From NCBI GenBank assembly GCA_964016885.1, contig OZ024752.1:13268001-13332000 (forward strand): a stretch of 64,000 bases of DNA. Direction: 5' to 3'. How positions within the stretch are numbered: position 1 is the stretch's first letter; each line of letters starts with the position of its first letter. This document shows, piece after piece, positions 4,196 to 64,000 of this stretch. Source of the stretch: Eledone cirrhosa (taxonomy: Eukaryota). The notes under the pieces are model-generated. The model ran no database searches. It saw only the letters and a program-made list of their open reading frames with translations, and was not told the DNA's origin. Both the position numbers and the translations under genes were made by a program.

Positions 4196-4305
4196 TAATA
4201 ATGCAACTGTAATAATAATAATAATAAATTTGAAGACTAAAATCCAAAGAGGGCTCGATAAGGATAAATATATATCAGATATATAAGAACCGTAGAGCAA
4301 ATATT

Positions 4306-7045
4306 TATTAAAATAACAGATTAAAGTTTAAGCAAAGAATCGCTGCTTTCACCCTTAACGGGATCTTCTGAAACTAACAAAGTCAATCTGTAAACGCAGA
4401 AGTGGATATTTCAAAAAACGTTGCAACCGGAGGGAGACAGGAAGACGATACTTTGGTTCGTGGAAACGTTCCCTGGCAAAGAACGGGAAAAAACGAATAT
4501 AATACGTCATTACCCTACGAAGTCCGATTTAGGTAGACTTAGTAAAAGGATTCTTGATAGAATTATACCTGAAATTAGAAGTTTGGCCCCTCTTGCACTG
4601 TGGAACAATTCTTTCGCAGTGATTGATTGGTTCAACGGCATATGCAACAAGGAACATTGCCGTTTTATCCAATTCGACATCAACAATTACTACTCCTCCA
4701 TCACTTTACCACTTCTCCTTAGAGCTATCAATTTCCCTAAAACACTCACAGTGGTTAAGGATTTCGAAGTTGATGTCATCCTCAATGCCCGTAAGTCGGT
4801 GATTAATTTCGACGACTCTATTTGGATTAAAAAATCCAATAGTACCCCATTCGACGTGAGTATGGGCGCCAGCGATTCTGCGGAGGTTACTGATCTTATC
4901 GGCCTTTTCCTTCTTTTCTCTATCAAGGACGAATTCCCCAACGCGGGCGGCGGTGTGTATCGTGACGATGGTCTTTTGACCATGACTAAGTGCGGACCTC
5001 GTGCTTGCGACAGGTTCAGAAAAGAACTCACAGCCTTCTTTAAAGGCTTCAACCTCTCTATACAGGTTGAGGCCAATCTCTCGGTCGTTAATTACCTCGA
5101 CGTTACCCTCAGTTTATCGAATGGGTTGTATTACCCGTATAGAAAGCCGAATGATACGCTTAATTACATAAGTAAGCATTCCAACCATCCTGCCAGCATA
5201 ACTAAGAATCTGGTAAGAAACGTTTCGTTGAGGCTTTCCCGTCTATCTACTAACGAGGATATATTCAACGACCATTCCACTTATTACAATGAAGCTCTTG
5301 CTCGGAGTGGATTTGTCGATAAGGTAGCTTATACAGAGTACGAAAATAGACCTAGAAGTAATAGATCTCGTCGCATTTGTTGGTATAACCCACCATATAA
5401 TATGGAGGTGGCCACACCATTAGCTAAGATCTTTCTTTCCTTTATTACGAAGCATTTTCCCCCTACACATAAATATAGTAACATTTTTAATAGAAATACT
5501 AATAAAATTTCTTACTCTACGACTCCTAACCTTGCACATAACATCACAGCTTCAAATTTAGCTAAACTACCTAGCCGTAGGAACACGTGCAACCCTGTAG
5601 TTAGTACTAACTGTAATTTTAGGATTCGGGTTGATTGCCCCTATCCGGGAAATGCCTCTCTAGTAACATTGTCTACAAATTTAAGGTTGAAACACCCACG
5701 TCCCGTAGGGCATACATAGGGTTAACCGCCAATAGATTCAAGCAGCGTCTTTACATGCATACCCATTCTTTTCGTTACCCTCTAAGAAGGAATATGACGT
5801 CACTTTCAGCTTATATCTGGAATCTAAAAGACAACCACACCCAATTTAAGTTACACCGGGAGATCCTAGCTAGGGCTAGATCGTATAACGGAAATAAAAG
5901 ACCGTGTGACCTCTGCGCCGCTGATCCCTGGAAATACTCTACGCCACAGACCACATCTTAAACAAAAAATCTGAGGCAATTTCGGCTTGTAAACATAAAT
6001 TGCGCAAAACTTTCCTGTATTACAGCCCCACGTTATACCCTAACGGATAGTACGATCTATATGTGGATATTTTACGTCTTGATGTGGTAGCTAAGTATAT
6101 GTTTTGTTTATATCATTACTTATTTGCATAGGTAAGTATATATTACCTGTATGTTTTGTGAAGGTACGTATACTTTCTCGTACGTATATTTGATTGTATA
6201 TGTTATGGCGTATAATTTTTTATATATTCTGGTACATACGGTTTGGTTATGTGTGTACGGGAGTTTTGCGTCTGTGTGAGTATGCAGGTTCGTTCGTATG
6301 TAGGGTGTGTGTATATGTGTACTTCATGTTTTGGTTGACGTTGGTCTCCGAACATTTGTGTATTTACATGTAGGTATGTGTGTGCGCTTGTTATATACGT
6401 ATTTATTTATTTATATACGTTTATTTAATTATTTATTTATTTGTATACACACACACATTTTTATATGTGCGTGGTTTTGTATACCTATGGCAAGTGTTTT
6501 CGCGTTTGCTCGTGTATGTACGTATTTGCATGCGTGTATGTATTTATTTAATTTCTATTACCTTTGTATTGTATTTTATTTACTTTATTCTTAACTCTGA
6601 AGCGGAGATTCATTCGCTTTCCTAGTAAGAATTTTAGTCTACGACTTCAGTTATACCATTTACGTGGTTTTGTCTTTGCGTGCAATTGTTCTCCACGCCC
6701 CACATATGACGTATTATCTTCGTTTTTTCCGTTCATTGCCAGAGAACGTCTCTATGAACCACCTCAGAGAACAGTAGTCTACGACTTCTTTTATACAATA
6801 AACGTGGTTCTGTCTTTGCGTGTAATTGTTTTTCACCGCTCCAAATAATGACGTATTATATTCGTTTTATTCCCGTTCTTTGCCAGGGAACGTTTCCACG
6901 AACCAAAGTATCGTCTTCCCGTCTTCCTCCAGTTGCAACGACTTTTGAAATATCCACTTCTGCGTTTACAGATTGACTTTGTTAGTTTCAGAAGATCTCG
7001 TTAAGGGTGAAAGCAGCGATTCTTTGCTTAAACTTTAATCTGTTA

Positions 7046-7053
<8 letters not shown>
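4306..7053 (+). mobile_element. Penelope-like element (probably Naiad-type) with an inverted 5' pseudo-LTR copy
   Basis: RT and GIY-YIG coding region followed by a pLTR; 4306-4511 is the reverse complement of 6846-7053. Confidence 0.88.
4512..6050 (+). pseudogene. Penelope-like RT + GIY-YIG endonuclease, 5'-truncated, frameshifts near 5640 and 5925
   Basis: QFDINNYYSSI, SMGA, YRDDG, YLDV, WYNPPY, CP.SGKC..NIVY, AYIGLT..FKQR, CDLC, and LNKKSE..CKH in the next frame. Confidence 0.88.
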
Positions 7054-7091
<38 letters not shown>

Positions 7092-7152
7092 TAACAGATT
7101 AAAGTTTAAGCAAAAATCGCTGCTTTCACCCTTAACGGGATCTTCTGAAACT

Positions 7153-10100
7153 CCATTGGATCTCTGAAGATCCATAGTTGCCGTCAGTGTGTGAAGGAGT
7201 GCAAGTCTCTAGCAGGCTTGAAAAGCCATATCTGAGGGACGCTCCGATATGGCTTTTCAAGCCTGCTAGAGACTTGCACTCCTTTACACACTGACGGCAA
7301 CTATGGATCTCCCTGGCTTGAGGTCCTGCATCAGGTTGGCCGTGAACCCTCGCAATACCTTGGAGATCATAGTTCACTGGTTCTCTTTGAACATGGCTGC
7401 GACTGTGGCTCCTGAGACCAGATTTGCTCAAGCAAATTTTTCTACACTCAGGGCACTTCAATTTAATGGACACACCGATCGTTTCAAGAGATACACCAGG
7501 GCATTGCTTACGCACATCCCGATTGATCTTCTCGTGCTCTATGCGTCTGTCCTCAAAATTATGGACCTCATCATTCACTATTCCACGGCAAGTTTCTCTT
7601 CCAAGATTTTCTATCTCCCAGTCAGCCATCATCAAACCAGTTTCTTTCAACGAGTTCTTTACACAATCATTGAATCGGAGCCCTGGCTTGTGAGATGGTC
7701 TCTTACCCTCACAAAGCTCGCAATACAAGAGTTGTTTTGGGATTTGATCATCCTCTATTCTGCAGAGGTGTCCGGTCCACTGCAAACGCCGTTGGTGGAT
7801 GACACTCTCAATGCTCCGACACTCACTTCTCTCAAGGCCCTCAACATCACTCACATGCATCTGCCACTTGATACCGAGCATCTTTCTGAGACACTGCTGG
7901 TGAAACCGTTCCAGTCTGTAGATATGCCATTTGTAGGCAACCCATGTCTCACATGCATACAGCAAAGCTGACATTACACATGCAGCATACACTCTCACCT
8001 TGGTCCTCATTGTGATTCCTCGCCTGCACCAAAGACGGTCGTTGAGCCTTCCAAATGACTTACTTGTCTTACTAACACGTAGACCAACTTCTGCATCCAG
8101 AGAGCAGATCACACCCAGAGTACTCCCTAAATACACAAATGTGTCAGCAGCCTTCAGCTTTTGACCGTATACGTGTATGGAGGGTTCATTGAAAACTTTA
8201 TCCGGAGCAGGTTGGTACAAGACGACAGTCTTCTTCAGACTGATTGTCAGTCCCAAAGCACTGCACAAATGGAAAAAGAATCCATAAGGTGTTGCATATC
8301 ACTCTGGGAGTGTGCAAAGAGATCACAATCATCAGCATATAAAAATTCTCTGATCAAGGTACTCAGTACTTTAGTGTTGGCACTGAGACGCCTAAGGTTA
8401 AACAGCCTGCCGGAAGTGCGATAGATACCGTGTTGACAATCCTTGAAGGCCATGAAGAACACCATCGCGAAATACAAGGCAAACAAAGTTGGTGCAGGTA
8501 TATCACCTTGTTTAACACCATTTTCAACCGAGATTGGCTCAGACAGTTTACCTGCAACATTCACCCATGCCTGCATGTCATCGTGGAAGAGTTTCAGAAT
8601 GTTCACAAACTTTTCAGGACAGCCCAATCTCTCCAAAATAACCCACAAAGCCTTCCGATTAACGGTGTCAAATGCCTTGGTCAGATCGACAAAAACTTGG
8701 TATAAGTCCATGCGCTGCTCAATGCATTTCTCTTGAAGTTTTTTGGCCGAGAAGATCATGTCAACAGTGCCTCTGCCGTTTCTAAAGCCATATTGGGACT
8801 CAGGAAGTACCTCAACAGCAATGTGCTGTATCAATCTGTCCAACAATATCCTGCACAAGATCTCCCCAGCCACAAATAGCAGTGAAACACCTCTGTAGTT
8901 GCCACAGTCATCTTTGGCTCCCTTTCCTTTGTAAAGTACCACCATCAATGCATCTTTCCAATTCTGTGGCACATCTTCATTCCAAACATTCACAAAGAGA
9001 TCAATGAGGCGGTTTAAGAAGTTATCACCAGCACACTTGAAAATCCCGGCACTCAGTCCATCCATTCCAGGTGACTTGCCGCTGTTTAATTTGGCAATGG
9101 CCTTCGCCACCTCTTCAAATGAAGGAGGATCAGCCATTGCCAGCTTTGTAGGTCTGGATGGAATCGACCGGATGAACTCATCATCAATTTTTGATGGTCT
9201 GTTGAGAGGCTCATCAAAGTGGTCATGCCACCTGATCAGGATTTCCTTCAGATCTCTGAGCAATTCCTTGCCGTCCTCGGAGCGAAGTGGTGATATTCGT
9301 GAACCGGTCAGACCATACACATCCCTGAGCAGACTGTATAGGCACTTTGTATCATGTCTATATGAGGCCTTCTGGATTTCATCAGCCTTTTGGCTCCACC
9401 AGGTATCCTGCATGGCTCTAAATCGATGTTGCAGACGTGCCTTGATCTTCCTGAAGATCCTGTCACTCCCATCAGAACGTGTCTCACACAACAATCATGT
9501 CAGCACTTTTTGTTTCTCTTCAAGCAAGGTCTGGATCACTGGATCATTTTCATCGAACCAGTCTTTATGCTTTCTATTGGTATGACCCAAAACTCCATCA
9601 CTAACATCATAGACGGTTTTCTTCAATGATTCCCAAGTGTTTTCACATTCCAAGGACTCAAGGGACCTCGACGGCTCAGCTCTGACTTTCAGACAAGCCA
9701 GGTTTAGTTTTTTTTGGAAGTGCAACCTTCTTCGCCCTTACTTTGGGCTTCACAACAAATTGAAACCTGGCGCGCACCAGACGATGATCAGTCCAACATT
9801 CGGCACCTCGCAATACACAAGCCAACGTGATATCCCTGATATCACGTTTTCTCGTTAAAACAAAGTCAGTAAGGTACCACTTCTTGGAACCTGGATGCAT
9901 CCAAGTTGTCTTATATTTGTCTTTCTGCTGAAAGAGCGCGTTCCCAACAACAAGATCCATCTCAGTGCACATCTGCAACAGTAGGCCGTTGTTATTCCAC
10001 TTACCTACTCCATGCCTGCCCACCACACTCCAAGATTCCCAGTCATTACTAACACGTGCATTAAAATCACCAAGGGTGACAATCTTGTCTGCATAAGGTA

Positions 10101-11135
10101 TACCATGGATGACCTCTCTCAAAGACATGTAGAAACTTAGTTTTTCATCATCACTAGCACACACAGTAGGAGCGTACACACTGACCAGAGTCACAAAGCG
10201 GTTTTGAATCAGAGGGACATTATCCGATCATTGAATCCACAACGAAGATTTTCTAGCTTTGAGACGATTCCATTCCTGACTGCAAATGCCACCCCTGCTT
10301 CTCTCCTGCAACCCTCTGCTCCACCACTCCAATAGAAGGTATATCCTTCCTTCTGTTCTGTGAATTGACCCTCACCTGCCAATCTCGTTTCTGAAAGAGC
10401 AACGATGTCCATGTTATAACGATCGAGTTCCCTCGACACCAAAGCAGATCTTCTTTCAGGGCGAGTTTTACTGGACTGGGAATCCAGTAAAGTTCTTACA
10501 TTCCAACATCCAATATTCAGAGGTTTGAAACTCCTTGCATTTGTAGCATGACGACCGGGCCCACGCTGCGGTGCCATGGGACACCTGCCGGGCCAGACCC
10601 CTTCACAATAAGTTCCAGAGCCCTTACTGCCATTGACCTCAAGGCTATCATCTGTCATCATAGAGTTTGGTGCACTTTTAGGCTATGGCCAGCCACACGA
10701 ACCTGTAACAGATCCTGAACAAGCGATGCCTGTGCATTGAAGGTTTTTTAAAGTGGGGAAAGGCCTTGCACGCGACCAATCCCACTCTCTGAGCATCGAA
10801 AACACTACCCGAAAAGGAGAACTGGTCAACATCATCGGATGCTTCCAAAGCTGCAGGTTTTTTTTCATAGTTTCCCTCTCCTAGAAAGGTGTTGTGACAA
10901 CAACAGGGGACCCTTCACTCCCAGGTAAAAAAATAAAGTACTATTGGATGGCCCTTGACTCTGCTGAGTTCCTCCGCCCTTTGACGGGTCTTGTATTTCA
11001 TCCCACAGGGTGTCCAAATATCACCCTCCCCACCAAGCAAGCTTGGTGGGGTTGCCGATTAAGTCGCCGACGATCCGACCATGAAGCAGGTAGTACCGGG
11101 TTACATGTTACCAGTAGCACTCGAGAGCAACCTGA
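7153..11135 (-). mobile_element. Near full-length degenerate RTE-clade LINE (5' UTR, APE, RT, C-terminal C2H2 fingers)
   Basis: APE motifs GCWNVRTL, ALSETR, SVYAPT, GDFNARV, WTDH; RT motifs GKSPGMDG, NYRGVSL, FVDLTKAFDTV, GVKQG, YADD; CPEC..H..H; spread over several frameshifted ORFs. Confidence 0.92.
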
Positions 11136-13723: not shown

Positions 13724-14479
13724 CAAACATATATACATATATACATGCATATATATATATATATGTATATACATATACTCATACATATATATATATATAT
13801 ACATATACAAACATATATACATATATACATACATATATATATATATACATATACATACATATATGAAATATAAGAATCAAAGAACTGTTCAAAACATTAT
13901 TGTGCTTACAGCTGTTTCCTCCAAACCGAGGTTTGGATTCTTCGGAGCAATTTATTAATGCATGGACAGTTATATGACCTCCTTTTCAGTCGAGAGACAT
14001 ACCAATACATATTCAAACATTGATACATATTCAAACATTGAGGGTCAACATTCATTACAGAATTTAGAGTGGCAGTACACACTTTGAGATTACATTTATA
14101 TTAATAGGTACAATCAAAAATCAAGGATATAGGTTAAAGTACAACATAAGATTGTTTTTACATTGAGCTACTTAACTTACTGGTAATAAGGTAGTAATAC
14201 ATTACTGCCTACCACTATTTAGGGTGTGTGTAAAATACTTACAACTGCTTAAGGTTTTGTGTTTACATAACCATAAATAGTATAACTAATACATACATAT
14301 ATACATTTACATGTGCACATATACATATATGCACACCTGTGAGCGTATATACATACATATACACACACCTAACTATACTTCATGATAGATTTTTATATAT
14401 TTCAATTTCTATTTCATTTATCTATATCTTTTTTTGATTTTCTTGATGTGTTTTTCTAAGTATTTGCCCATGTTTTATA

Positions 14480-38645: not shown

Positions 38646-39079
38646 CATACAGGTACACCTACATATATGCACGTATCAGTTTAGCGGACGCTTATTATAA
38701 CGCCGCTTTGTTCGTTTGTAAACAAACTGAACAGCCTGAATGTTATGCCGTACGGTGATAAGGCAACCACGTCACCTTTTTGTTCAACACTGACACAGGA
38801 ACAATGTACTAGTTTCAAGCTTGTTAGCTATCATCAGCACCGTATACCCATCTGTCAGATAGTTGAACGTTCGAAACTATATACTTTCCTTATGAAAATT
38901 AACGGCTGAGCAGCCTAATTTGCATATCGAGTGAGTTATGTCGGTCAGGCATACCGAGAACGATAAGTTGAAATAAAATGAAAACGAAATTTCATTTCTC
39001 ACTCTTAGTACGGCACTTACTTAAATGTAAGTATGTGTGTATACGTACATACATATATGTATACAGACGTACAGTAGCA

Positions 39080-39137
<58 letters not shown>

Positions 39138-39573
39138 CAGGTACACATATACATACAGGTACACATACATATATGCACGTATCAGTTTAGCGGACGCTTA
39201 TTATAACGCCGCTTTGTTCGTTTGTAAACAAACTGAACAGCCTGAATGTTATGCCGTACGGTGTTAAGGCAACCACGTCACCTTTTTTTTTCGATATGTA
39301 AATTAGGCTGCTCAGCCGTTAATTTTCATAAGGAAAGTATATACTTTCGAACGTTCAACTATCTGACAGATGGGTATACGGTGCTGATGATAGCTAACAA
39401 GCTTGAAACTAGTACATCGTTCCTGTGTCAGTGTTGAACAAAAAGGTGACGTGGTTGCCTTAACACCGTACGGCATAACATTCAGGCTGTTCAGTTTGTT
39501 TACAAACGAACAAAGCGGCGTTATAATAAGCGTCCGCTAAACTGATGCGTGCATATATGTATGTGTACCTGTA

Positions 39574-45650: not shown

Positions 45651-45694
45651 ACCGTCTATGCATTTCAGGCTTAACTGGCCTTCGTCAGGACGGT
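45651..45694 (-). ncRNA. Minimal type I hammerhead ribozyme
   Basis: accgtc-CTGACGA-aggc(cagttaa)gcct-GAAA-tgca-TA-gacggt; all helices pair perfectly. Confidence 0.88.
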
Positions 45695-47880: not shown

Positions 47881-48959
47881 TATATATATATGTATATATA
47901 TACGTATATATGCATGTATATATGTATATACATATATGTATATATATATATGTATATACATGTATATATATGCATATAGATGTATATTTACAACACCACC
48001 TGCCTCTTTGAGGTCAAATACCAACCCTACTAGCATCTACAAACTGACCAATGAGAATTAAGACTATTCCTGCTGACAACATTAAATTATTCCTAACAAG
48101 CTCATATGTCCCAAGGCTGTGATACCATCAACACTATAAACACAGAGCTGGCATATCTAAGAACTGACTAACTACCTGATGAGGTCATAGCCATTCAATG
48201 GCTATCATCGAAATATATATGGCAGTAAATAAAGGTAATTATTACTATAGGTAAGTTTAAGTAATTATTACTATAGGTAAGTTTAAGTAGGAATCCCACG
48301 GAACTCAACATTGCTCTCACTGATCATTTCTACGCATTTCTCCACAGCAAAATCCACGTCAATAGATGGATACAGGGACACAACATCCATACTACCTATT
48401 ATGCAGTTTGTTAGGGCCCTAGATCGGTTACTCACGCCGATTCTGCTGAGGAGGTCCTCCGTGCTGTCACATACATCTGGGGACATTTCGATGATGGGGC
48501 GTATGATCAGGGAGAGGAAGTAGGACAGTCTGTAGTTACTAGCAATGTTAGCTCCACAGACTGGCCGTGTTGGTGGTCCCGCGACAGGGTCACTGCCCGT
48601 TTTATGGTCTTTTCGAAGCCCATACAACGCCGGCACGTCATTGTTCCAGGCTTGGAAGTTGTTGGCAGTCCTTTTGTTGGGCTGCATTATATTCGTCCAC
48701 ATCACCATACGGGCATTGAGGGCTTTTTCTCTATCCTCATGCTCCTGTGGTGTTACCTCTCTTGTGTTAGTGATGTGGGGTTGCATTGCCTGGATGTATT
48801 TTGGCAGGCTGTCAACTGACATTCTGCCAGACTTGTCTGTTGGAAAGCATGCTATCTCTCCATTACGCGAGCGCTGCATGAGCTTACGCAAGCCATTTGC
48901 AGATTTTTCTCCCAGTTGCTGGGCCTCCATTCTATTATGCTTCTTGCTATACTGTTCTA

Positions 48960-50403
48960 TAATACCTCAATGGCCAAGAAAACCCACACAGATAGATGGA
49001 ACGGGTGGACCAGAGCCATACGGACACCCGAAAACCACGATGAACTGAAGAAAATGATTGCACATGCGGTAGGGGCCAGCATAAAACTAACCCTTAAGGA
49101 ACATATGTTCAAATTTAATGGAAAAACATATGCCCAAGAGGAAGGAGCAGCCATTGGTGTTAGCATTGCAGGCGACATAGCTAACTTATTCATGGTATGG
49201 TGGGACAGTAGACTTAAACTTAAGCTTAAAGAACAATTAGAAGACCCCTTAACCCTGATAATGTACTCCCGCTACGTTGATGATATAAACATCGTAGTTA
49301 AGACACCCCCACTAGAGAACAGTCAAGAACTAGAGAAAAACACAATGGAAAGCATCCAGCAAATAGCTAACTCCATCCACCAGAGCATTAGAGTTACTAT
49401 AGACTACCCTAGTAAACACCCCAACCATCGATTACCTGTACTAGACACAGAGCTCTGGTTAGATACCATTAATAACAAAAAACAAATCCTCCATTCCCAT
49501 TATGCCAAACCCATGACTTCCAAACATCTGATCCACCGAAACTCGGCCGTTTCGGACCATACCAAAATCAACATACTGATTGCGGATTTGGTACGGGTGA
49601 TGAGAAACGTGTCCCGCATGTGCAACCCCGAAGAACTAGAGAGACACATACAACACTTCATCCACCGTATGCAGTTCTCTGGCTACAATCAGAGAGATAA
49701 AATCAGAGTGTATAGTGGAGCCAGAACCAAATGGGAAAAAATGGTAAATAATGACATAAATGGGACCTGCCCCTTGTATAGGAGCAAATTTTGGAATAGA
49801 ATAGAAAGAACTAGGAACAAGGCTAATAGAATAAACTCATGGTATGATAGCAAAAAATACCAGAGTGTAATGTTCATCGATACAACCCCTAGAGGTGAAT
49901 TAGCTTACAAATTTAGAAGGGCCCTAAATAAACATAAACTCAATATTAAGATAGTAGAAAAACCAGGTACCTCCGTAAAAACACTTATTAGCAAGACATA
50001 CCCTTTTCAAAGACCCTCATGTATGGATAAGAAATGTATAACCTGTAAAATAAGCCCCCATATTAACTGTAAAACTAGAAATGTAGTGTATAGCATAAGA
50101 TGTACTGAAGGACAATGTAGAGACAAAAATATAGTGTACATAGGTGAGACAGCTCGTAGTGTAGGGGAACGGATAAATGAACACTGGCGAGACCTTCAAG
50201 ATAGTAAAGAATCATCTGTACTCTACCAACATGCTAAAATAGAACACAAGGGTAAATTAGAGAACATAGAAATAAAAATAGAATCTACACACAGAAAAGA
50301 CGCAATGTTTAGACAAATTACAGAGGCAATAAACATAAAAGAATTACAACCAAAATTAAATAGAAAATATGAGTGGAACAGCAACATCACAACTTACAAT
50401 TAA
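48960..50403 (+). CDS. Uninterrupted Penelope RT (C-terminal half) + GIY-YIG frame, N-terminally truncated by the inversion
   Basis: ORF 48916-50403; homology starts at TSMAKKT. Confidence 0.75.
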
Positions 50404-50978: not shown

Positions 50979-51370
50979 TACGATATATTAACAAATGGAA
51001 ACTATATTTATAAAACCATATTTATTTCATTATACATATTTCAAGGACACCAAGTTAAATTATGGTGTGCTTTCATCAGATAAAATATAATATAGATCAG
51101 TTTTATAAATAAATATTGACATACCCTTAAAGAATGCGACCATTTCTAATTTGCATAATAGAATAAATAAATTTAATAACCCCACTATCCGGGAGCTTCC
51201 AACAGAAATGGTGGCATTCTTTACGGGTATGTCAATATTTATTTATAAAACTGATCTATATTATATTTTATCTGATGAAAGCACACCATAATTTAACTTG
51301 GTGTCCTTGAAATATGTATAATGAAATAAATATGGTTTTATAAATATAGTTTCCATTTGTTAATATATCG

Positions 51371-54365: not shown

Positions 54366-56990
54366 TCTTTCTTTATTTGCCACAGGGGCGTACAAAAATG
54401 GGACAATACAAGACGTGACGGCGGGGGTTTTACATAAAAATAACTTTAACATTAATAAATAACAATAAACTATATATAATAAAATAACAATTGAAATCCC
54501 CAATAGGGGGGAACGTTACTGCAGGGTTGTTTTACACCCCGTGGATAGAACAACCCTTAACACCAGGAATAGGTTTTGTAGGTGTTCCTATCTCCCCTCT
54601 GTTAATCTTCCTCAACCTACAGGTGTATATACAGAGAAGGCCCATTTTCGCCACATTCACCCACCTTTCAGCCAATTTATAGGGGTGTAGCACCTCTCTC
54701 TCCACTCTCACCTTCCTTCTGAAGTGATACTTAAAGAAGAGGATAAGTTGTTGCCCAGAAGGTGTTTGCCCTCAGTCCTTTTAACGTTGTCCACCATATT
54801 ACCTCTTTCGCCATAGCCACCAGACAGAGGAAAACCGCCTCTCCTTCGTTCTTAAATGAAGGCGGCGGGCTGATCCTCACGATGGAGTCGGCTGACAACT
54901 GGATGCGTCCCACACGTGACAGCAGTTGTTCGACATAATTCCACAGGTCGGTCACCCCGGGGCACTGAACAATTGCGTGCAGAACGGTTTCGATGTCCTG
55001 CTCGCATCTTGGACAGGTCCTTTTGGCAGGATCTCTGCCAGGGCGTCTGTGCTTGTAAATTTTGTCTGGAACTGGTAGAGCTCCTCGGTAGCACTGCCAG
55101 GGCAGAGACCTCTGGAAGTTATCCATAGGCCCTGGACGGAAAGTCCTCCCGAACAGGCTGGTCAGTTCGTCCTCCTCGATGCCTAGAGTTTCCCCGAGAA
55201 CGTCGTCGCACCTATCCTCCACTAATCGCCTATAGAATGTCGAAGTGGAGTCTCCGCTGATTGCCGTTTCCGCTTGGTAGAGGGCTGCGAGCGCCTGTAG
55301 GCACTCGAGGTGCCAGGCACCCATTTTCGGTCTTCGCTTGACCCAGGACTGCAGCTCTGTTAGTGAGACGAGTTGTGGAAGAACTCGTCTCACAAACGAC
55401 AGCTACACCGGTTCACCGGTCAGGAATACCTGCGCTTCATCAGCCAAGGCATGCCCAGCCCTCCGTTAGAAGGGTGTTGACAGCAGATGGGTCTCCTCAC
55501 CAATGGAGCCTGTTTCTTCCAGAGGAACTTGATGAGTAGGCGTTCCATTTTGGTAAGGTATTCGCGGGGCCAAGGCACGACTGTCAAGCGGTAAAAGATG
55601 ACGGACGCTATGTAAGTGTTCGCCACCTCCGCTCGACCTTTCAAGGAGAGTTTGCACTCAGCCCATTTCTGGGTGAGTGCAAACACCTTCGCCGTAACCT
55701 CGTTCCAGTTCTTGTCCACCTGGAGGTCTGGACCAAACCAGACCCCGAGCAATTTCACCGGTCCTTCCGTCCTGGGCCTAACGTCACTGTCGGAAGGCAT
55801 GGGTTTGCCTCTCCATGTGCCGAGTTGCAAACCGACAGACTTGTTTGGGTTTAGTCTTGCTCCTGTCAACGTTTCGTATTCCTGTAATAGGTTGCCGATT
55901 ACCCTGATTTCCGAGGTTTTCGACACTATTACGGTTATGTCGTCGGCATAGGCCGACGCTGCTTTCCGCAGTCCTGATTCGATCGGGATGCCCTGCAACA
56001 GCTTTAACTTGCGCAGTAACGGCTCGAGAGTCAGTACATACAGAATGGAGGAGAGAGAGAGCATCCCTGACGGATGGAATGCATGATTTGGAATGGCTCT
56101 GATAGGTAACCATTCACCTTGACTGCCGAGCAGATGCTGGTGTGCATGGCAGCGATCCAGCCTCTGAAGACGGGACCGAAGCCGGCCGCCTTGAGAACTG
56201 CTTCCAGGTATTGATGGTCGACACTATCAAATGCCTTAGACTGATCTAAATTGATCAGAGCCCCACCGAAGCCAGGTTTACACCCTACCCTCTCTATGAT
56301 GTATCGCATGAGGTGGAGGTTGTCATGTATGGACCTGGTCGGGATTGCACACGTTTGGGCTTCCCCTACCAGGTTCTCGACGACAAGCGCCAGCCTTGCT
56401 GCTAGCACTGTGGCCAAAATCTTTAACTCTGTGTTGAGCAGAGTTATGGGCCTGAAATTGCTTATCTCATCCCCCTTGTTCGACACTATCAAATGCCTTA
56501 GACTGATCTAAATTGATCAGAGCCCCACCGAAGCCAGGTTTACACCCCTTTCGCAGCTCTCTGCATCCGTGCTCGAGAGTCGCGATACGCCGTCGAGGTA
56601 GGAGCTGAAGTCCATCACCTCGCTCGAAGTACCACTTTGCTCGAACAGTTGTGTAAAATGCTGCTGGGAAGGCCGTGCACATCTGCTTGGATTCAAGTAT
56701 AATGCGTCCATCGTTGTCTTGCAAAGACGGAATTGTGGATTTGTTGCCACTTTTCGCCTCTGCCACTCGGGCCCATCTAACAGCTTTGGCTCCCTCGTTG
56801 CTTAGAGCACGTGTTCTACTTCTGACAATACAACCTTCGTGTTTCACGTTGAAGAACTGGTCTAGTGTGGTTCTCGCCGCTAGCACGCAAACTGTACTGC
56901 CATTCCTAAGTGCCTCTTCTATTTTAACTACCAGTTCCTTTTCAGTTTTGTTTTTTTCTAAAGGTACTTCCTTGCTAAATGCTATCGATC
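54365..56990 (-). mobile_element. Degenerate 5'-truncated Tx1/L1-like LINE (RT + zf-RVT) between (GATA)n tracts
   Basis: NFRPITLLN, LDQSKAFDSVDH, SIRQGC.LS, AYADD, LSLKGR, GGLGMP, CPRC..ETVLH..C; (gata)n at 54312-54364 and 57005-57057. Confidence 0.9.
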
Positions 56991-57003
56991 CTAAATGCTA
57001 TAT

Positions 57004-57058
<55 letters not shown>

Positions 57059-57744
57059 TGTGTATCCCGGGTTCAATCGGGAGTAACCACAGTAAGTAAT
57101 TACTCACTACATTCTTCCTCACCATTTCTCCCTCTCACTTTCATTCATCCTCTCTCTGTCAGCCACCTCATTGTTTCCCTCGCCTGACCCTCTAGCACTC
57201 CTTTTCTCACTTACATTCGTTGGGGCCAGGCGTGTCTCTTGGCTCGCCGACACGCTCTTGAACTTAAGTTCTCTTATCGCTGTGGTCTTGGATTTTCTTA
57301 CCTTAAGTTGCTCGCACATTGCTCGGTTTGTTGTTTTTTTTTCGCTGTTATTTTTCGCTGTTTTCTCTTTTCTTCCCTTTTCCTTTCTATTTTGCTCCCT
57401 CCCTTCTCTTTATCCAGTTATTGAACGCTCTGGGGGGTAGATATATTGTCTTTAAAGCGTGGAAATATCCGAGACCTCCAGTAGACAACTGATGAAGAAA
57501 ACTCCCCCCCCCCCTCGTTCTTGCTTTCTTCTTATTCTCACTCCATTTTAAGCTATATATATATATAGTTTCAGAAGATCCCGTTAAGGGTGAAAGCAGC
57601 GATTCTTTGCTTAAACTTTAATCTGTTATTTTAATAAATATTTGCTCTACGGTTCTTATATATTTGATATATATTTATCCTTATCGAGCCCTCTTTGGAT
57701 TTTAGTCTTCAAATTTATCATTATTACTATATATATATATATAT

Positions 57745-59933
57745 ATATTGTTATATTTGGGGAGGGTCATATTTGCGTAATATTGCCAGAATTAATAACA
57801 GAACACACTCACTGTTTGGTTGGTTTTCGCTTCTCGCTGTCTTTTATATATATATATCTGCGATCTAACTTACTCGGTCCTCAATGTTGCCATTGACTGA
57901 CCGGCGGTCAAAAATAATACAGATACAATATAGACACAAACACATATATATAGTTTACATAATTTACATAAATCTTTCGTTGCACATCTGCAACATCGTC
58001 AGTGGTGTTATATTCATTGTTCCTCCTGTTGTGTTGTATGTCTACGCCATTTTTTTTGTTCAGTCTGTCTATATATTTATTTATTTATTTGCTTGTTTGT
58101 TTATCTTATTTTATTTTGTCTTCTTTGCGCATGCGTTTGCGTGTGTGTATAGTGTTATGTGTGATGTGTGACTAGTGTGTATAGTGTTGTGTCTGCTGGG
58201 TGACTAGTGTGTGTTTATCTGCTTGTGTATGTATTTATTTATCTTATTTTATTTAATTTTATTTACTTATTTATACTTCTCTTAGGTCAGTGTTGTTTGT
58301 TTGGGTGTTGTTGTTGTTCCACTCATTCTTTCTGTTTAGCTTTGGTCTTCTAATTTCTATTTCACTGGCCTCTCTGATTTGCCTATCTGCTGGGTCATTC
58401 CTATGTTTAGATATTATTCTAATTTCTATGTTGTCTATGTTACCGTCATGTTGTTGTCTAGCATGTTTGTATAGTACTGACCCGTTTTTTCGTCCTTTTA
58501 GTTCCCCCCAGTGTTGGTCTATCCTTTCACCTATGCTACGAGCTGTCTCACCTATGTATGTTGTTGTCATGTTTCTGCAAGTACCCTCTGTACATCTTAT
58601 GCTATAGACTACGTTTCTAGTTTTACAGTTTATCCGGGGGTTCACAAATGATACATTTCCTATTGGTATAGTGGGTTTTCTTAAAAGGGTAGGTTTTGCT
58701 GATCAGGGATTTTATGGTGGTTCCTGGCTTTTCTACCACCTTTATTTTTAAGTGGGTCTTTCTCAGGGCCTTTCTACACTGGTTAGCTAATTTCCCTCCA
58801 GGGGTGGCGTCCACAAACATGACACTCTGATATCTCTGGTTGTCGTACCATGATGTGGCCTTCCCTATCTTATGTCTAGCCCTATCTAAGCTATTCCATG
58901 ATTTGCTCCTGTATAGTGGGCAAATTCCTTTCATGTCCAGTTCTATGAGGGTCTTATACTTTTCCATGGCTCCTTCGTATACTCTGACTCTGTCTCTTTG
59001 GTTGTAGCCAGAGAACTGCATGCTGTTGATGAAGTGTTGGATGTGTCCTTCCATTTCTGTTGGGTCGCACATGCTGGACACATTCTTCATCACTCGTACC
59101 AAATCTGCGATCAGAATATTAAACTTAGCACTACTGGACATTGCTGAGTTTTTGAGTATCAGGTATTTGGAGGCCATGGGTTTAGCATAGTGTGAGTGGA
59201 GAATTTGGGCTCTCTCGTCTATAGTGTTAATCCAGAGTTCTGTGTCTAATACAGGTAGTCTATTGTTAGGGTGTTTGGAAGGGAAGTCTATAGTTACAGT
59301 TATACTCTGGTGTATGGAATTAGCTATCTGCTGGATGCTTTCCATCGTGCTACGTTCTAAATCAAACTTGTTAGTGCTCTCTAGTGGGGGTGTTCTTATA
59401 ACTATATTGATATCGTCTACATAACGAGAGTACATGATGAGGTCTATGGAGCTTTCATTAAGGAGATCTTTAAGTCTCCTTTCCCACCATACCATGAAAA
59501 GGTTGGCAACATCACCAGCTATGCTGACGCCGATGGCTGCTCCCTCATTTTGGGTGTAGATTTTCTCATTGAACTTAAATATGTGGCCCTTTAGGGTAGT
59601 TTTGATACTAGCCCCTATTGCATGTGCGACCATTTTTCTTACCTGATCAGTGTTTTGGGGGGTCCGTATAGCTTTGGTCCACCCAATCCACCTTCCTATG
59701 GGAGTCTTTTTAGCCATTGAGGTTATGGTGGGGGGTCTACCTCTTATAGGTCTACTAGGGCAGAAACATCTAAGGTCATGGCTGTCTAGGTAGTCAGTGT
59801 CGTAGGTAAGTCTAAGTAGGAGGCCCAGTTCGTCTGTGTCGACGTCGCAGAACTCCACCTCACTCTCAATGATCATCTCCACACATCTTTTCACAGCAAA
59901 ATCAATGTTAATGGATGGGTACAGTGACACCAT
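57745..59933 (-). mobile_element. 5'-truncated Penelope-like element (sister of 48286-50860), frameshift near 58640, pLTR 58270-57745
   Basis: VSLYPS, GAAIG, YVDD, YIGET, RQIREA; pLTR near-identical to 2378-2900; HHR-like core at 57975-58002. Confidence 0.92.
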
Positions 59934-59949
59934 ATATATATATATATAT

Positions 59950-60422
59950 ATTCAGGTTTGAGGATCACCACTGGATAGAGCTGGTCAATTCCGTATGGTC
60001 AATCTTAATGTAAGAATATGGAGAGTACTCAACGTAAAGCAGTTCAACCGTCTTTGTTTTTGTAGTTGGTGGTGCTATTACGGAGTTAAATATTATAATG
60101 AAATGACAGGAGGCTGGACTTGTGTAAATCCTTGAAAGGTTTATTATACTATGATCATTTCAATGACCGGGTTCCGTATGAATCCGGTGATATCATCAGG
60201 TATTCGAAATATAATAAGTGAAGACTTGAGGGCGACCGGCAAAGGTGGAAGATGCTGGATGGCCGTCGTCCCCATGGATTTTATCTATTACATTCACTTA
60301 TTATATTTCGAATACCTGATGATATCACCGGATTCATACGGAACCCGGTCATTGAAATGATCATAGTATAATAAACCTTTCAACGATTTACACAAGTCCA
60401 ACCTCCTGTCATTTCATTATAA
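59950..60422. repeat. pLTR-like foldback with opposed HHRs
   Basis: 60090-60222 is the reverse complement of 60295-60425; family shared with 34480-34830 and 39786-40092. Confidence 0.85.
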
Positions 60423-61846: not shown

Positions 61847-63559
61847 CTAACAGTGCTGCGATCGAATGTGGCTTTTTAGCCCAGCCAATGATCCAAAATG
61901 TCTTGCACAGAGTCGGCAACCAAAACATTTACTGGGAATAGTCGGCTGTGGTTGGAGTTCGTGTACTTTTGCATGTCGCTTGAGTCCTCCTGCTGATTTA
62001 CATTCTCTACCACATGTTTGGCAAGCATGATGAGTAGCATCTCCAACAGCAGCCTGGTAGTCAACCACTGGTCTTACTTTATGACTGCGAAGATGACTTT
62101 CGAGTCCAGCTTTGCTTAGGCAGAGTCTCGCACAGACGCTGCATGTCAGAAACATAGGAGGACCCTCGCCGTCTGGAAGTGCAACAGCAATACCCTTCCT
62201 CACGTCCCGCTTTACTTTCTCGTGTGCGATTCGAGATGCCTCAAAGGCAACTTTTCCCTCATATACAGTCTTTCTCCATTTATTACGATCAGCAGCAATA
62301 TTTTCCCATGTATCAGCAGAGATGTTAGCGTCTTTCAGAGAGGCCTTCAAGGAATCCTTATACCTCTTTTTTGGTTTATGTGGCGGTCGTTTTCCTTTAA
62401 CCAACTCTCCATAGAAGAGTTGTTTTGGTATTCTAGAATCCTTCATCCTGGCAAGGTGACCACTCCAACGGAGTCGCTGCTTAAGCACAAGAGCTTCTAT
62501 ACTGTCACACATAGAGCTTTCCAAAATCTCGACATCACTGATGTGGTCCCTCCAGCGAACGCCATGTATCCGTCTGAGACACATCTGATGGAAACGCTCC
62601 AATTGCTTAAGGTGGCGTCGATATGTGACCCAGGTCTCGCAGGCATAAAGAAGACAAGAGAGTACACATGCCCTGTACACCCTTACCTTTGTCCTCCTGC
62701 ATATGTCTCGCCGACCCCAGAGTCGCCTTTCTAGCTTTCCGAAAGCATCACTTGCTTTCCTAATCCTAAGTGAGATTTCACTGTCAAGGTTGCCGTATCG
62801 ATTGACAGTGCTTCCCAGGTAGACAAACTGATCAACCACTCCAAGTCGTTTGCCATACACATAGATGTTTGGTTCAGTGTACTGCCTACCAGGTGCAGGT
62901 TGGTACATGACGACGGTTTTCTTGAGACTGACAGTCAAACCCAGGGCAGTGCAAGCGTCAGAAAATACATTCAAAATGTGCTGCATATCACTCTCTGTGT
63001 GCGCTACAAGATCGCAATCATCTGCATACAAGAGGTCTCTTATGACTGATGTAAATACTTTTGTCTTCGCAGCAAAGCGCCTGATGTTAAATATGCTGCC
63101 TGAGGTTCGATATCGGATGTAAACACCATGCTCGCAATTCCTGAATGCAATACAGAAAACCATTGCAAAGTATATGGCAAACAGGGTCGGTGCTGGAATA
63201 TCCCCCTGTTTCACTCCATTTTTTACTGAGATAGGCTCCGACATGTTACCTCCGACATTAACCCAAGCCTTCATGTCGTCATGGAAAGACCTAACTAAAG
63301 CAAGGAACTTATCAGGGCAACCAAGTTTCTGGAGAACCTTCCATAATGCATCTCTGTTGACAGTATCGAAAGCCTTTGTCAGATCGACAAAAACCTGATA
63401 CAGATCCAAGCCCTGTTCAATGCACTTCTCCTGGAGCTGTCTAGCTGAGAAGATCATATCAGTAGTGCCGCGTCCAACACGAAAACCAGATTGACTTTCA
63501 GGAAGGACACAATCTGCAATGTGTGTCAGCAGACGGTCCAGAAGCACCCTACATAAAAC
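61847..63559 (-). CDS. RTE LINE RT + three C2H2 zinc fingers, uninterrupted but 5'-truncated (3' UTR and tail extend to ~61590)
   Basis: PESQSGFR, FVDLTKAFDTV, GVKQG, LYADD, YLGS, LYACETW; CSVC..H..H, CQTC..H..H, CRLC..H..H. Confidence 0.88.
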   Translation of the reverse strand, partial: VLCRVLLDRLLTHIADCVLPESQSGFRVGRGTTDMIFSARQLQEKCIEQGLDLYQVFVDLTKAFDTVNRDALWKVLQKLGCPDKFLALVRSFHDDMKAWVNVGGNMSEPISVKNGVKQGDIPAPTLFAIYFAMVFCIAFRNCEHGVYIRYRTSGSIFNIRRFAAKTKVFTSVIRDLLYADDCDLVAHTESDMQHILNVFSDACTALGLTVSLKKTVVMYQPAPGRQYTEPNIYVYGKRLGVVDQFVYLGSTVNRYGNLDSEISLRIRKASDAFGKLERRLWGRRDICRRTKVRVYRACVLSCLLYACETWVTYRRHLKQLERFHQMCLRRIHGVRWRDHISDVEILESSMCDSIEALVLKQRLRWSGHLARMKDSRIPKQLFYGELVKGKRPPHKPKKRYKDSLKASLKDANISADTWENIAADRNKWRKTVYEGKVAFEASRIAHEKVKRDVRKGIAVALPDGEGPPMFLTCSVCARLCLSKAGLESHLRSHKVRPVVDYQAAVGDATHHACQTCGRECKSAGGLKRHAKVHELQPQPTIPSKCFGCRLCARHFGSLAGLKSHIRSQHC

Positions 63560-64000
63560 TATACATACATATATACATATATACATATATACATACATAC
63601 ATATAAAGTATAGATATGTGTGTTTGTGTATGTGTGTATGTGCATGTGTGTTTTGTTTTGATGTTATCCGGCAATTGACGAAATCAGGTGTGAAAGTATG
63701 TGTATTTGTGTGTGTTGCCCGTCCCTCTGTTTCTCTTTCCCTGTCTCTCTTTCCTCTCTCCTCTCTCTCTCTCTTTAGATGTGTGTGTGTGTGTGTAGTT
63801 TTCCTAATCTGACTCTTTCACTCTCTGTCTCTCTAAGAGGGTTGCCTTTTGATGTATGTATTACCTGTTTGAAACGGAAAGGAAAAGAGTATTGTCATAT
63901 AGAGAGTGAAGAGAGACAAAGAGTAAAGCAGTTAAATTATAGAGAGGGTGAAAGAGGGAGAGAGAGAGACGACGCTCAGCTTTATAATATTATAGATATA

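Follow-up and report, generated by a model that had tools for sequence, protein, structure and literature searches.

What is a hammerhead-shaped motif that carries A in place of the canonical U at core position 4, repeated over and over in the genome of Eledone cirrhosa, and does it still cut? The question is raised by a stretch of 64,000 nucleotides of contig OZ024752.1 (the window), in which a sequence-only reading had picked out seven copies of a CAGAAGA core and had proposed a natural core variant in a recently mobile Penelope-type lineage. All seven copies lie where that reading had put them. The pattern CAGAAGA..GAAA is expected 0.13 times in the window, and seven occurrences were reached in none of 100 shuffles. 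The seven motifs align as copies of a single repeat family and therefore count as one event, not as seven. We numbered the main motif from core position 4, which is position 0 and lies at window position 6990. The cut is predicted after +39 (7029), and the earlier placement of the site was right. The features of the window that belong to this family and to a second one are as follows (A4, C4 and U4 denote A, C and U at core position 4).

4211 to 4512, minus strand: 3' end of the element, inverted and 5'-truncated, with a long tail (to +157 from position 4); A4 motif at 4325-4375 (blastn to the intact copy L101, 96.7-97.9%).
4512 to 7053, plus strand: Hydra-type Penelope-like element, direct 5'-truncated copy with a (TA)n end (92% over 2588 columns to L101).
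4514 to 6047, plus strand: broken ORF with RT (YRDD), a CxCx5C linker remnant plus GIY-YIG at the C-terminus, spanning residues 198-709 of the intact protein (tblastn, query the 709-aa intact ORF of L091; translations).
6968 to 6976, plus strand: 5' strand of distal helix I, partner of 7035-7043 (fold, mean pair probability 0.94); missing in an RNA that starts at the equivalent of 6984.
6984 to 7034, plus strand: type I hammerhead-shaped motif with A4 at 6990, predicted cut after 7029 and putative RNA start at 6984.
7035 to 7053, plus strand: 3' strand of distal helix I; copies usually have their 3' end here (+63 to +69).
7079 to 7152, minus strand: minimal copy, tail to tail with the main copy, beginning at base 1 of helix I behind a non-reference G and ending in (TA)n; motif at 7103-7152 (from the sequence).
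13860 to 14152, minus strand: 3' fragment of a second Hydra-type family; hammerhead at 13903-13949 with C at position 4.
23094 to 23370, minus strand: inverted long-tail copy; A4 motif at 23203-23253 with two helix mismatches.
23440 to 23962, plus strand: older, diverged 3' fragment; A4 motif at 23890-23938 with a deletion upstream.
25249 to 25412, plus strand: short copy of an older type; A4 motif at 25338-25388.
57567 to 57730, plus strand: short copy from base 1 of helix I to the long-tail end; A4 motif at 57567-57617.

The A4 motif has the type I layout: three helices surround the core, and helix I joins the ends. The helices do not covary within the A4 family. Helix I pairs -6 to -2 with +40 to +44. 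Helix II consists of 3 bp closed by a U10.1.U11.1 mismatch, and helix III of 4 bp and a G.U pair with a 7-nt loop. Helix III is thus a true hairpin, as had been noticed from the letters, and in this the published Hydra motifs differ. Absent from the earlier reading was a distal helix I of 9 bp, 6968-6976 with 7035-7043 (-22 to -14 with +45 to +53). The three helices can be drawn at the motif as described, but they are not intact in all seven copies: the copy at 23203 has one mismatch in helix I and one in helix II, and that at 23890 has lost helix I's first base to a deletion and is mismatched in helix II. The core bases C3, G5, A6, G8, A9, G12, A13, A14, A15.1-U16.1 and H17 are the majority in both subfamilies. 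Since the canonical U at core position 4 is replaced, we file the motif as a hammerhead-derived variant and not as a canonical member. Its triplet is CUU, and the C16.2 that this entails is absent from the outside motifs among the matches listed, which counts against activity. When the window was scanned against Rfam, the best 150 of 409 matches were (TA)n and inverted-repeat sequences that resemble microRNAs, with hammerhead families absent among them, and the output of a repeat finder was dominated by microsatellites.

The window ORF begins at about codon 198 and carries two frameshifts, near 5640-5690 and near 5925. A search of the 3.0-Gb host genome gave full-length copies with a single ORF of 709 aa from the first Met, in which RT is followed by a C-terminal GIY-YIG endonuclease without CCHH (alignment A1). 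The protein has the motifs DKT, RWR, CxCx5C, CxxC and CxH; among the full-length loci, DKT and CxCx5C were each present at 19 of 20 and CKH at 20 of 20. RWR stands in place of the RWK of Hydra and is also found in 7 of the 21 homologues of alignment A1. A Pfam search of the protein returned no family, so the domains rest on motifs and alignment. The homologue P0005 (44%, E 2e-175) agrees by eye with the Hydra-2_Amil fragment. Most 3' junctions of 97 copies lie in (TA)n, a Hydra-like target.

By its protein, then, the element is assigned to the Hydra type. The Hydra clade (PMC8557442) shares with it the single ORF with C-terminal GIY-YIG, the motifs DKT, RW[K/R], CxCx5C, CxxC and CxH and the lack of CCHH; insertion at (TA)n, tails and partner copies that are inverted and 5'-truncated; and, in the pseudo-LTR, a type I motif on the sense strand that often has U following A9, U preceding G12 and U17. 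The element departs from the Hydra rows in A4, in G15.2-C16.2 and in the 7-nt hairpin loop, and its unit is 3.3 kb as against < 3 kb; Hydra-1_Obim is a separate family with a canonical core (PMC8557442). According to the text of Craig et al. 2021 (PMC8557442), canonical hammerheads are universal in the Hydra clade, and the clade itself is defined on protein; the A4 family is the exception. The same text calls the role of hammerheads in Penelope-like elements unclear and allows parasites as a possibility. The label "Naiad-like", proposed from the letters, has to be given up. Naiads are alike in their (TA)n targets, in very high copy number and in being without a canonical hammerhead, but they have an N-terminal endonuclease and DKA (replacing DKG), whereas the ORF of the A4 element opens with RT-proximal motifs, has its endonuclease at the C-terminus and reads DKT.

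Recent mobility, on the other hand, was correctly read. All 20 loci chosen for long frames have open frames of at least 712 aa, and identity to an intact copy was 84-99% (median 95%) for the 58 of 97 copies that were long enough to measure. A FastTree tree of 46 partial proteins (midpoint root, Hydra-like relatives only, rows < 220 residues excluded) groups the A4 family with P0001 and P0007 inside a subclade of support 1.00 in which C4 and U4 families are found as well; the A4 family is not nested within C4. The nearest outside protein, P0001 (56%), used as query, returned nothing but the A4 family, and the viral contigs that we searched contained no relative. Hydra-type animal retroelements were also seen in prokaryotic genome bins from animal hosts (L248-L263), most likely as host contamination.

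A4 is the founder state of the family. An exact 26-base pattern matched 22,654 A4 copies and 730 U4 copies genome-wide; the consensus is A4 and not U4. A4 is thus the state of the family and not a product of random decay, in agreement with the reading from the window. When the helix I strand is intact, position 4 is A in 18,086 (15,803 + 2,283) of 18,272 copies and another base in 186; the first 100 of these 186 among the matches listed comprise, by hand count, 39 G, 34 T and 27 C. All 27 motifs beside full-length frames (19 of the 20 long-frame loci) have A4. A U4 subfamily could be rejected, since 28 of the 30 U4 loci inspected are head-to-head inversion junctions with one strand reading CTG, and in-place U is no commoner than G. 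The remaining two are in-place changes; L053 and L056 are natural U4 copies of this kind within the A4 family. An assembly artefact is unlikely, as in the contigs of two runs of one study position 4 is A and every alternative letter stays below 2%. The inversion junctions (among L031-L060) would number about 650, as estimated from 28/30 of 730. They are centred on core position 4 and sit at a small palindrome, TTC-A-GAA, that recreates CTGAAGA on one strand.

We compared 30 old loci with 31 young full-length loci column by column. The old loci were found with the 3' UTR of an old copy, a query that stops about 380 nt before the motif. The majorities of the two sets differ at 108 of 923 3'-UTR columns but agree at all 51 columns of the motif and at all 19 that follow it (Fisher, motif versus 3' UTR, p = 0.004; versus the nearest 144 columns, 0.02). 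Over the block as a whole, none of 70 columns has changed, while the flank has changed at 11.7% (p = 0.0004). Of 409 ORF codons, 36 differ synonymously and 23 by replacement between old and young copies. The unchanged block, and the A4 found in 27 of 28 old copies, which arose before the young burst and share the block, weigh heavily against the view that a broken ribozyme hitch-hiked in one master copy, its conservation being due to chance or to terminal-block exchange by template switching at the RNA start. Such an origin would suit a single founder for all copies and the high frequency of cDNA ends and junctions precisely at the 5' edge of the block; even so, we consider it very improbable.

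What the block is kept for is a separate matter. The conserved block equals the putative start site plus the 3' end, and the 19 columns past the motif are as conserved as the motif; the constraint therefore need not be catalytic. The ~11 core columns alone are insufficient for showing constraint at 12% divergence, and no compensatory changes were seen inside the A4 motif between subfamilies. Variants among the subfamilies point both ways: pairing survives a C-G to U.G change in helix II and a G.U to A-U change in helix III, whereas a G to C change, at the same helix III base as G.U to A-U and at similar depth, breaks it. In an earlier subfamily comparison of close copies, 15 upstream columns and 2 in the motif region were variable, a divergence too small to be informative. 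The ribozyme may be dead, the block being kept as a terminal repeat of the RNA that supplies the start site, promoter-proximal signals and an RT start or jump site. We regard this as a substantial possibility, though short of probable; that conservation opens exactly at the putative start base and reaches the 3' end past the motif is what it would lead one to expect.

The ends of the copies point to where the RNA starts. Among 97 copies picked by core pattern only, 26 have their start no more than 12 nt upstream of position 4, as against 3 that start in the 20 nt beyond, and the 3' ends cluster at +63 to +69 and at +150 to +158, in (TA)n. Genome-wide, 2,283 copies have a non-reference base directly before helix I; 28 of 30 inspected are true copy ends. 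G makes up 52 of 100 of the non-reference bases among the matches listed (p = 9e-5 versus one third). An extra G at a 5' junction is a known trace of a copied cap, and its presence before helix I makes it likely that the capped RNA starts at the first base of this helix. The start base lies in TTAGTT, which we take to be an initiator-like word. Copies starting at helix I extend across the cut site and so come from uncut templates. At the predicted cut site junctions are rare, 118 as compared with 76 at a control site 4 nt upstream (1.6-fold, a ratio inflated by an A-run that admits neighbouring junctions) and with 2,283 at the start site. A dead ribozyme would explain this rarity, but the observation does not discriminate: a family with a canonical core that served as control (window 38813-39408; 23,653 copies genome-wide, often in tandem arrays of 420-500 bp) gave 58 cut-site and 70 control-site junctions. 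As the canonical family lacks a cut footprint too, the footprint says nothing on the activity of A4. The idea that A4 might create a TTTCAG splice acceptor found no support in the contigs of four runs, of unrecorded kind, a source in which neither ends nor splice joints are visible.

Predicted folding of the motif is weak, as would be expected of a dead ribozyme. The hammerhead shape is not the minimum-energy fold (z ~0) and lies above the ensemble by 6.2 kcal/mol in its 5' form and by 4.5 kcal/mol in its 3' form. The pair probability of helix I is 0.01 on the cap side versus 0.07 on the tail side, where the distal helix reaches 0.94; in an RNA starting at -6, the cap-side motif is without distal helix I.

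Published work on related motifs bears on the activity to be expected. In the deep mutagenesis of a type III hammerhead by Roberts et al. 2023, every single CUGA mutant had low activity (PMC9901934), a further point on the side of a dead motif. The inactivating mutants that Olsthoorn 2014 selected in phage MS2 include no U4 change, a point in favour of residual activity, although the screen was one of mostly transitions and so tells in favour of C4 more than of A4 (PMC4075628). A viroid U4C was far slower yet still sufficient in vivo, and U10.1.U11.1 was tolerated; Perreault et al. 2011 proposed that core variants are perhaps offset by tertiary contacts (PMC3088659). Penelope-type motifs cut slowly according to Cervera and De la Pena 2014 (PMC4209133). 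For the anole element, Frangieh et al. 2024 reported that uncut RNA is the main template, that core mutants insert normally in vitro and that cutting requires protein (PMC11167929). The uncut templates of the A4 copies fit these data, and the normal insertion of core mutants is equally compatible with a ribozyme that has died, as is the amplification of Naiads without canonical hammerheads (PMC8557442). Taken together, this literature makes strong attenuation appear more likely than either normal activity or complete loss.

The same sources allow closer comparison. The metazoan Penelope-like minimal hammerheads of PMC4209133 resemble the A4 motif in lying in both terminal repeats, in their short helix I, in thousands of solo copies and in low expected activity; they differ in a helix III that is absent or palindromic (dimer-dependent), and the sole core variant named in that text is a compensatory U3-A8 pair. 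Among the natural variants of Perreault et al. 2011 are both a position 4 change and the U10.1.U11.1 mismatch, but these are single sequences, whereas A4 marks a family with thousands of copies (PMC3088659). Neither the main text nor the text supplements of that paper mention U4A, a scope that does not extend to figure S7 (inactive variants). More generally, we found no natural U4A in literature texts on hammerheads and Penelope-like elements, a survey without figures and without Lunse et al. 2017, a possible source of position-4 variants. Poseidon of the green anole is like the A4 element in having two internal RT starts that define the tail, AT-rich targets and uncut RNA as the main template; it is unlike it in its canonical core and in belonging to another clade, and the helix I start and the two 3' ends of the A4 element are deduced from genomic copies alone (PMC11167929).

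Could A4 simply be near-neutral, with the hairpin helix III, the loop contacts of a distal helix I or the element protein restoring near-normal activity? Both A4 families known from this genome (see below) have a hairpin helix III and a long helix I, while the U4 and C4 Hydra motifs have a short palindromic helix III, and the tertiary contacts suggested to offset core variants (PMC3088659) are of the kind required. But the retention of U4 elsewhere argues that this base matters. Of 93 loci outside this genome with related proteins, 65 had a motif, and the best motif has U4 in all 65. The descriptor, which allowed one core mismatch, gave no match at the other 28 and picked up five of the window's seven copies; the set does not include the hammerheads of P0001 and P0007, which stand nearest to the A4 family in the tree. 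The 26 Hydra rows of File S2 all have CUGA, with a helix III loop of 0-3 nt (PMC8557442). Furthermore, fast cutting by the monomer would destroy the very templates that gave rise to the copies. We therefore judge near-neutrality improbable.

Position 4 has changed repeatedly in this genome, in a C4 radiation and in a second A4 family. The C4 family (window 13860-14152, minus strand; L412-L423, L456-L485) has 3,938 matches genome-wide, with C4 in 99 of 100 among the matches listed. It has intact Hydra-type frames of 832 aa that are ~40-46% identical to the A4 protein, and its ORFs are very young. Older C4 relatives, which include a U4 sister family, gave 2,079 matches with C4 in 80 of 100 among the matches listed. 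The helices of the C4 relatives covary: 92.5% of cells are paired and 9 changes are two-sided (0 of 500 shuffles; 28 rows including a single U4 row, relatedness not controlled). The second A4 family, unrelated-looking and with at least 78 copies of ~600 bp (L025, minus strand; L426-L455, L486-L505), has A in 76 of 78 matches, a helix I of 8-9 bp, a hairpin helix III and a GUC triplet. An ORF of its own was not found for it, and neighbouring Hydra ORFs carry their own U4 motifs. Its helix II is irregular, which counts against a slowed ribozyme. In yet another family C4 occurs as singletons and the motif is mostly canonical (92 T, 7 C and 1 A of 100 among the matches listed).

A scan of 1.99 Mb of the genome itself, with one change permitted anywhere in the core, found a family-level change at position 4 only; the loci scanned were enriched by design for the A4 and C4 families. 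A dead ribozyme could decay at about ten core positions, yet at family level only position 4 has changed, in three lineages, and the C4 lineage retains helix covariation and an otherwise intact core. These points speak against the loss of catalysis in the A4 family. Two variants were noted in passing. The 3' UTR of a Hydra-type fragment (L364, minus strand) contains a C4 motif with a very long helix II insertion, and L267 and L272 (L424, L425) represent an apparently non-autonomous derivative that shares ~140 nt and the A4 motif and differs in sequence both upstream and downstream.

The chances are about even, in our estimate, that the motif is the terminal-repeat hammerhead of a recently amplified Hydra-type element whose A4 core, in 22,000-plus copies, constitutes a strongly slowed but not dead ribozyme under selection. 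In the mechanism that we propose for such a slowed ribozyme, the capped RNA would begin at base 1 of helix I and bear the motif at both ends. Reverse transcription would begin downstream of the cut site (+63 or +157) at (TA)n nicks, so that uncut RNA alone would be copied. Cutting would strip the RNA of its cap or its priming site, so that a slow core could be tolerated or favoured. Residual cutting, probably assisted by protein, would take place chiefly at the 3' copy, the sole holder of distal helix I.

A wider proposal is more tentative, and we hold it to be possible but somewhat doubtful. Penelope-like elements of this genome may tune their ribozyme via position 4, with U4 where the motif depends on dimers, C4 in a radiation of long standing and A4 on two occasions, in motifs that acquired a self-sufficient helix III. 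In the main family, whose RNA would start on helix I, the cap-side copy would be disarmed and only the tail-side copy would cut, slowly. U4A would then be a new natural active core, with tens of thousands of copies missed by searches for CUGA.

The family-wide, conserved U4A variant of the hammerhead in a Hydra-type element is real whichever of these readings applies. One subclade in one genome provides a natural series of families with U4, C4 or A4, of which two have young copies that are intact, and the U4 copies L053 and L056 of the A4 family can serve as matched controls. Should A4 cleave, the consensus for natural cores would have to be widened, and any census that insists on CUGA would be missing tens of thousands of motifs per genome. 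Should it not cleave, this genome would offer a hammerhead fold that selection maintains in the absence of catalysis, together with massive amplification of an element with no working ribozyme, and this in a clade to which one has been ascribed without exception.

The window contains several other elements. Seven tandem 310-bp units at 18375-20259 (plus strand), each with a canonical minimal hammerhead, form an array resembling non-LTR retrozymes. Canonical hammerheads of other Penelope-like families, several as inverted pairs, lie at 20899-22771, 45663-45688 and 51039-51312, and ORF fragments at 48283-50403 and 58623-59951. Core variants with U3-A8 (TTGATAA, TTGAAAA), a known kind of variant, occur in at least two families (window 45487, minus strand; L095, L150, L268). 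Finally, the minus strand has broken non-LTR retrotransposons at 7132-10682, 54731-56997 and 61847-63817; they contain RT and AP-endonuclease frames and have no relation to the A4 motif.
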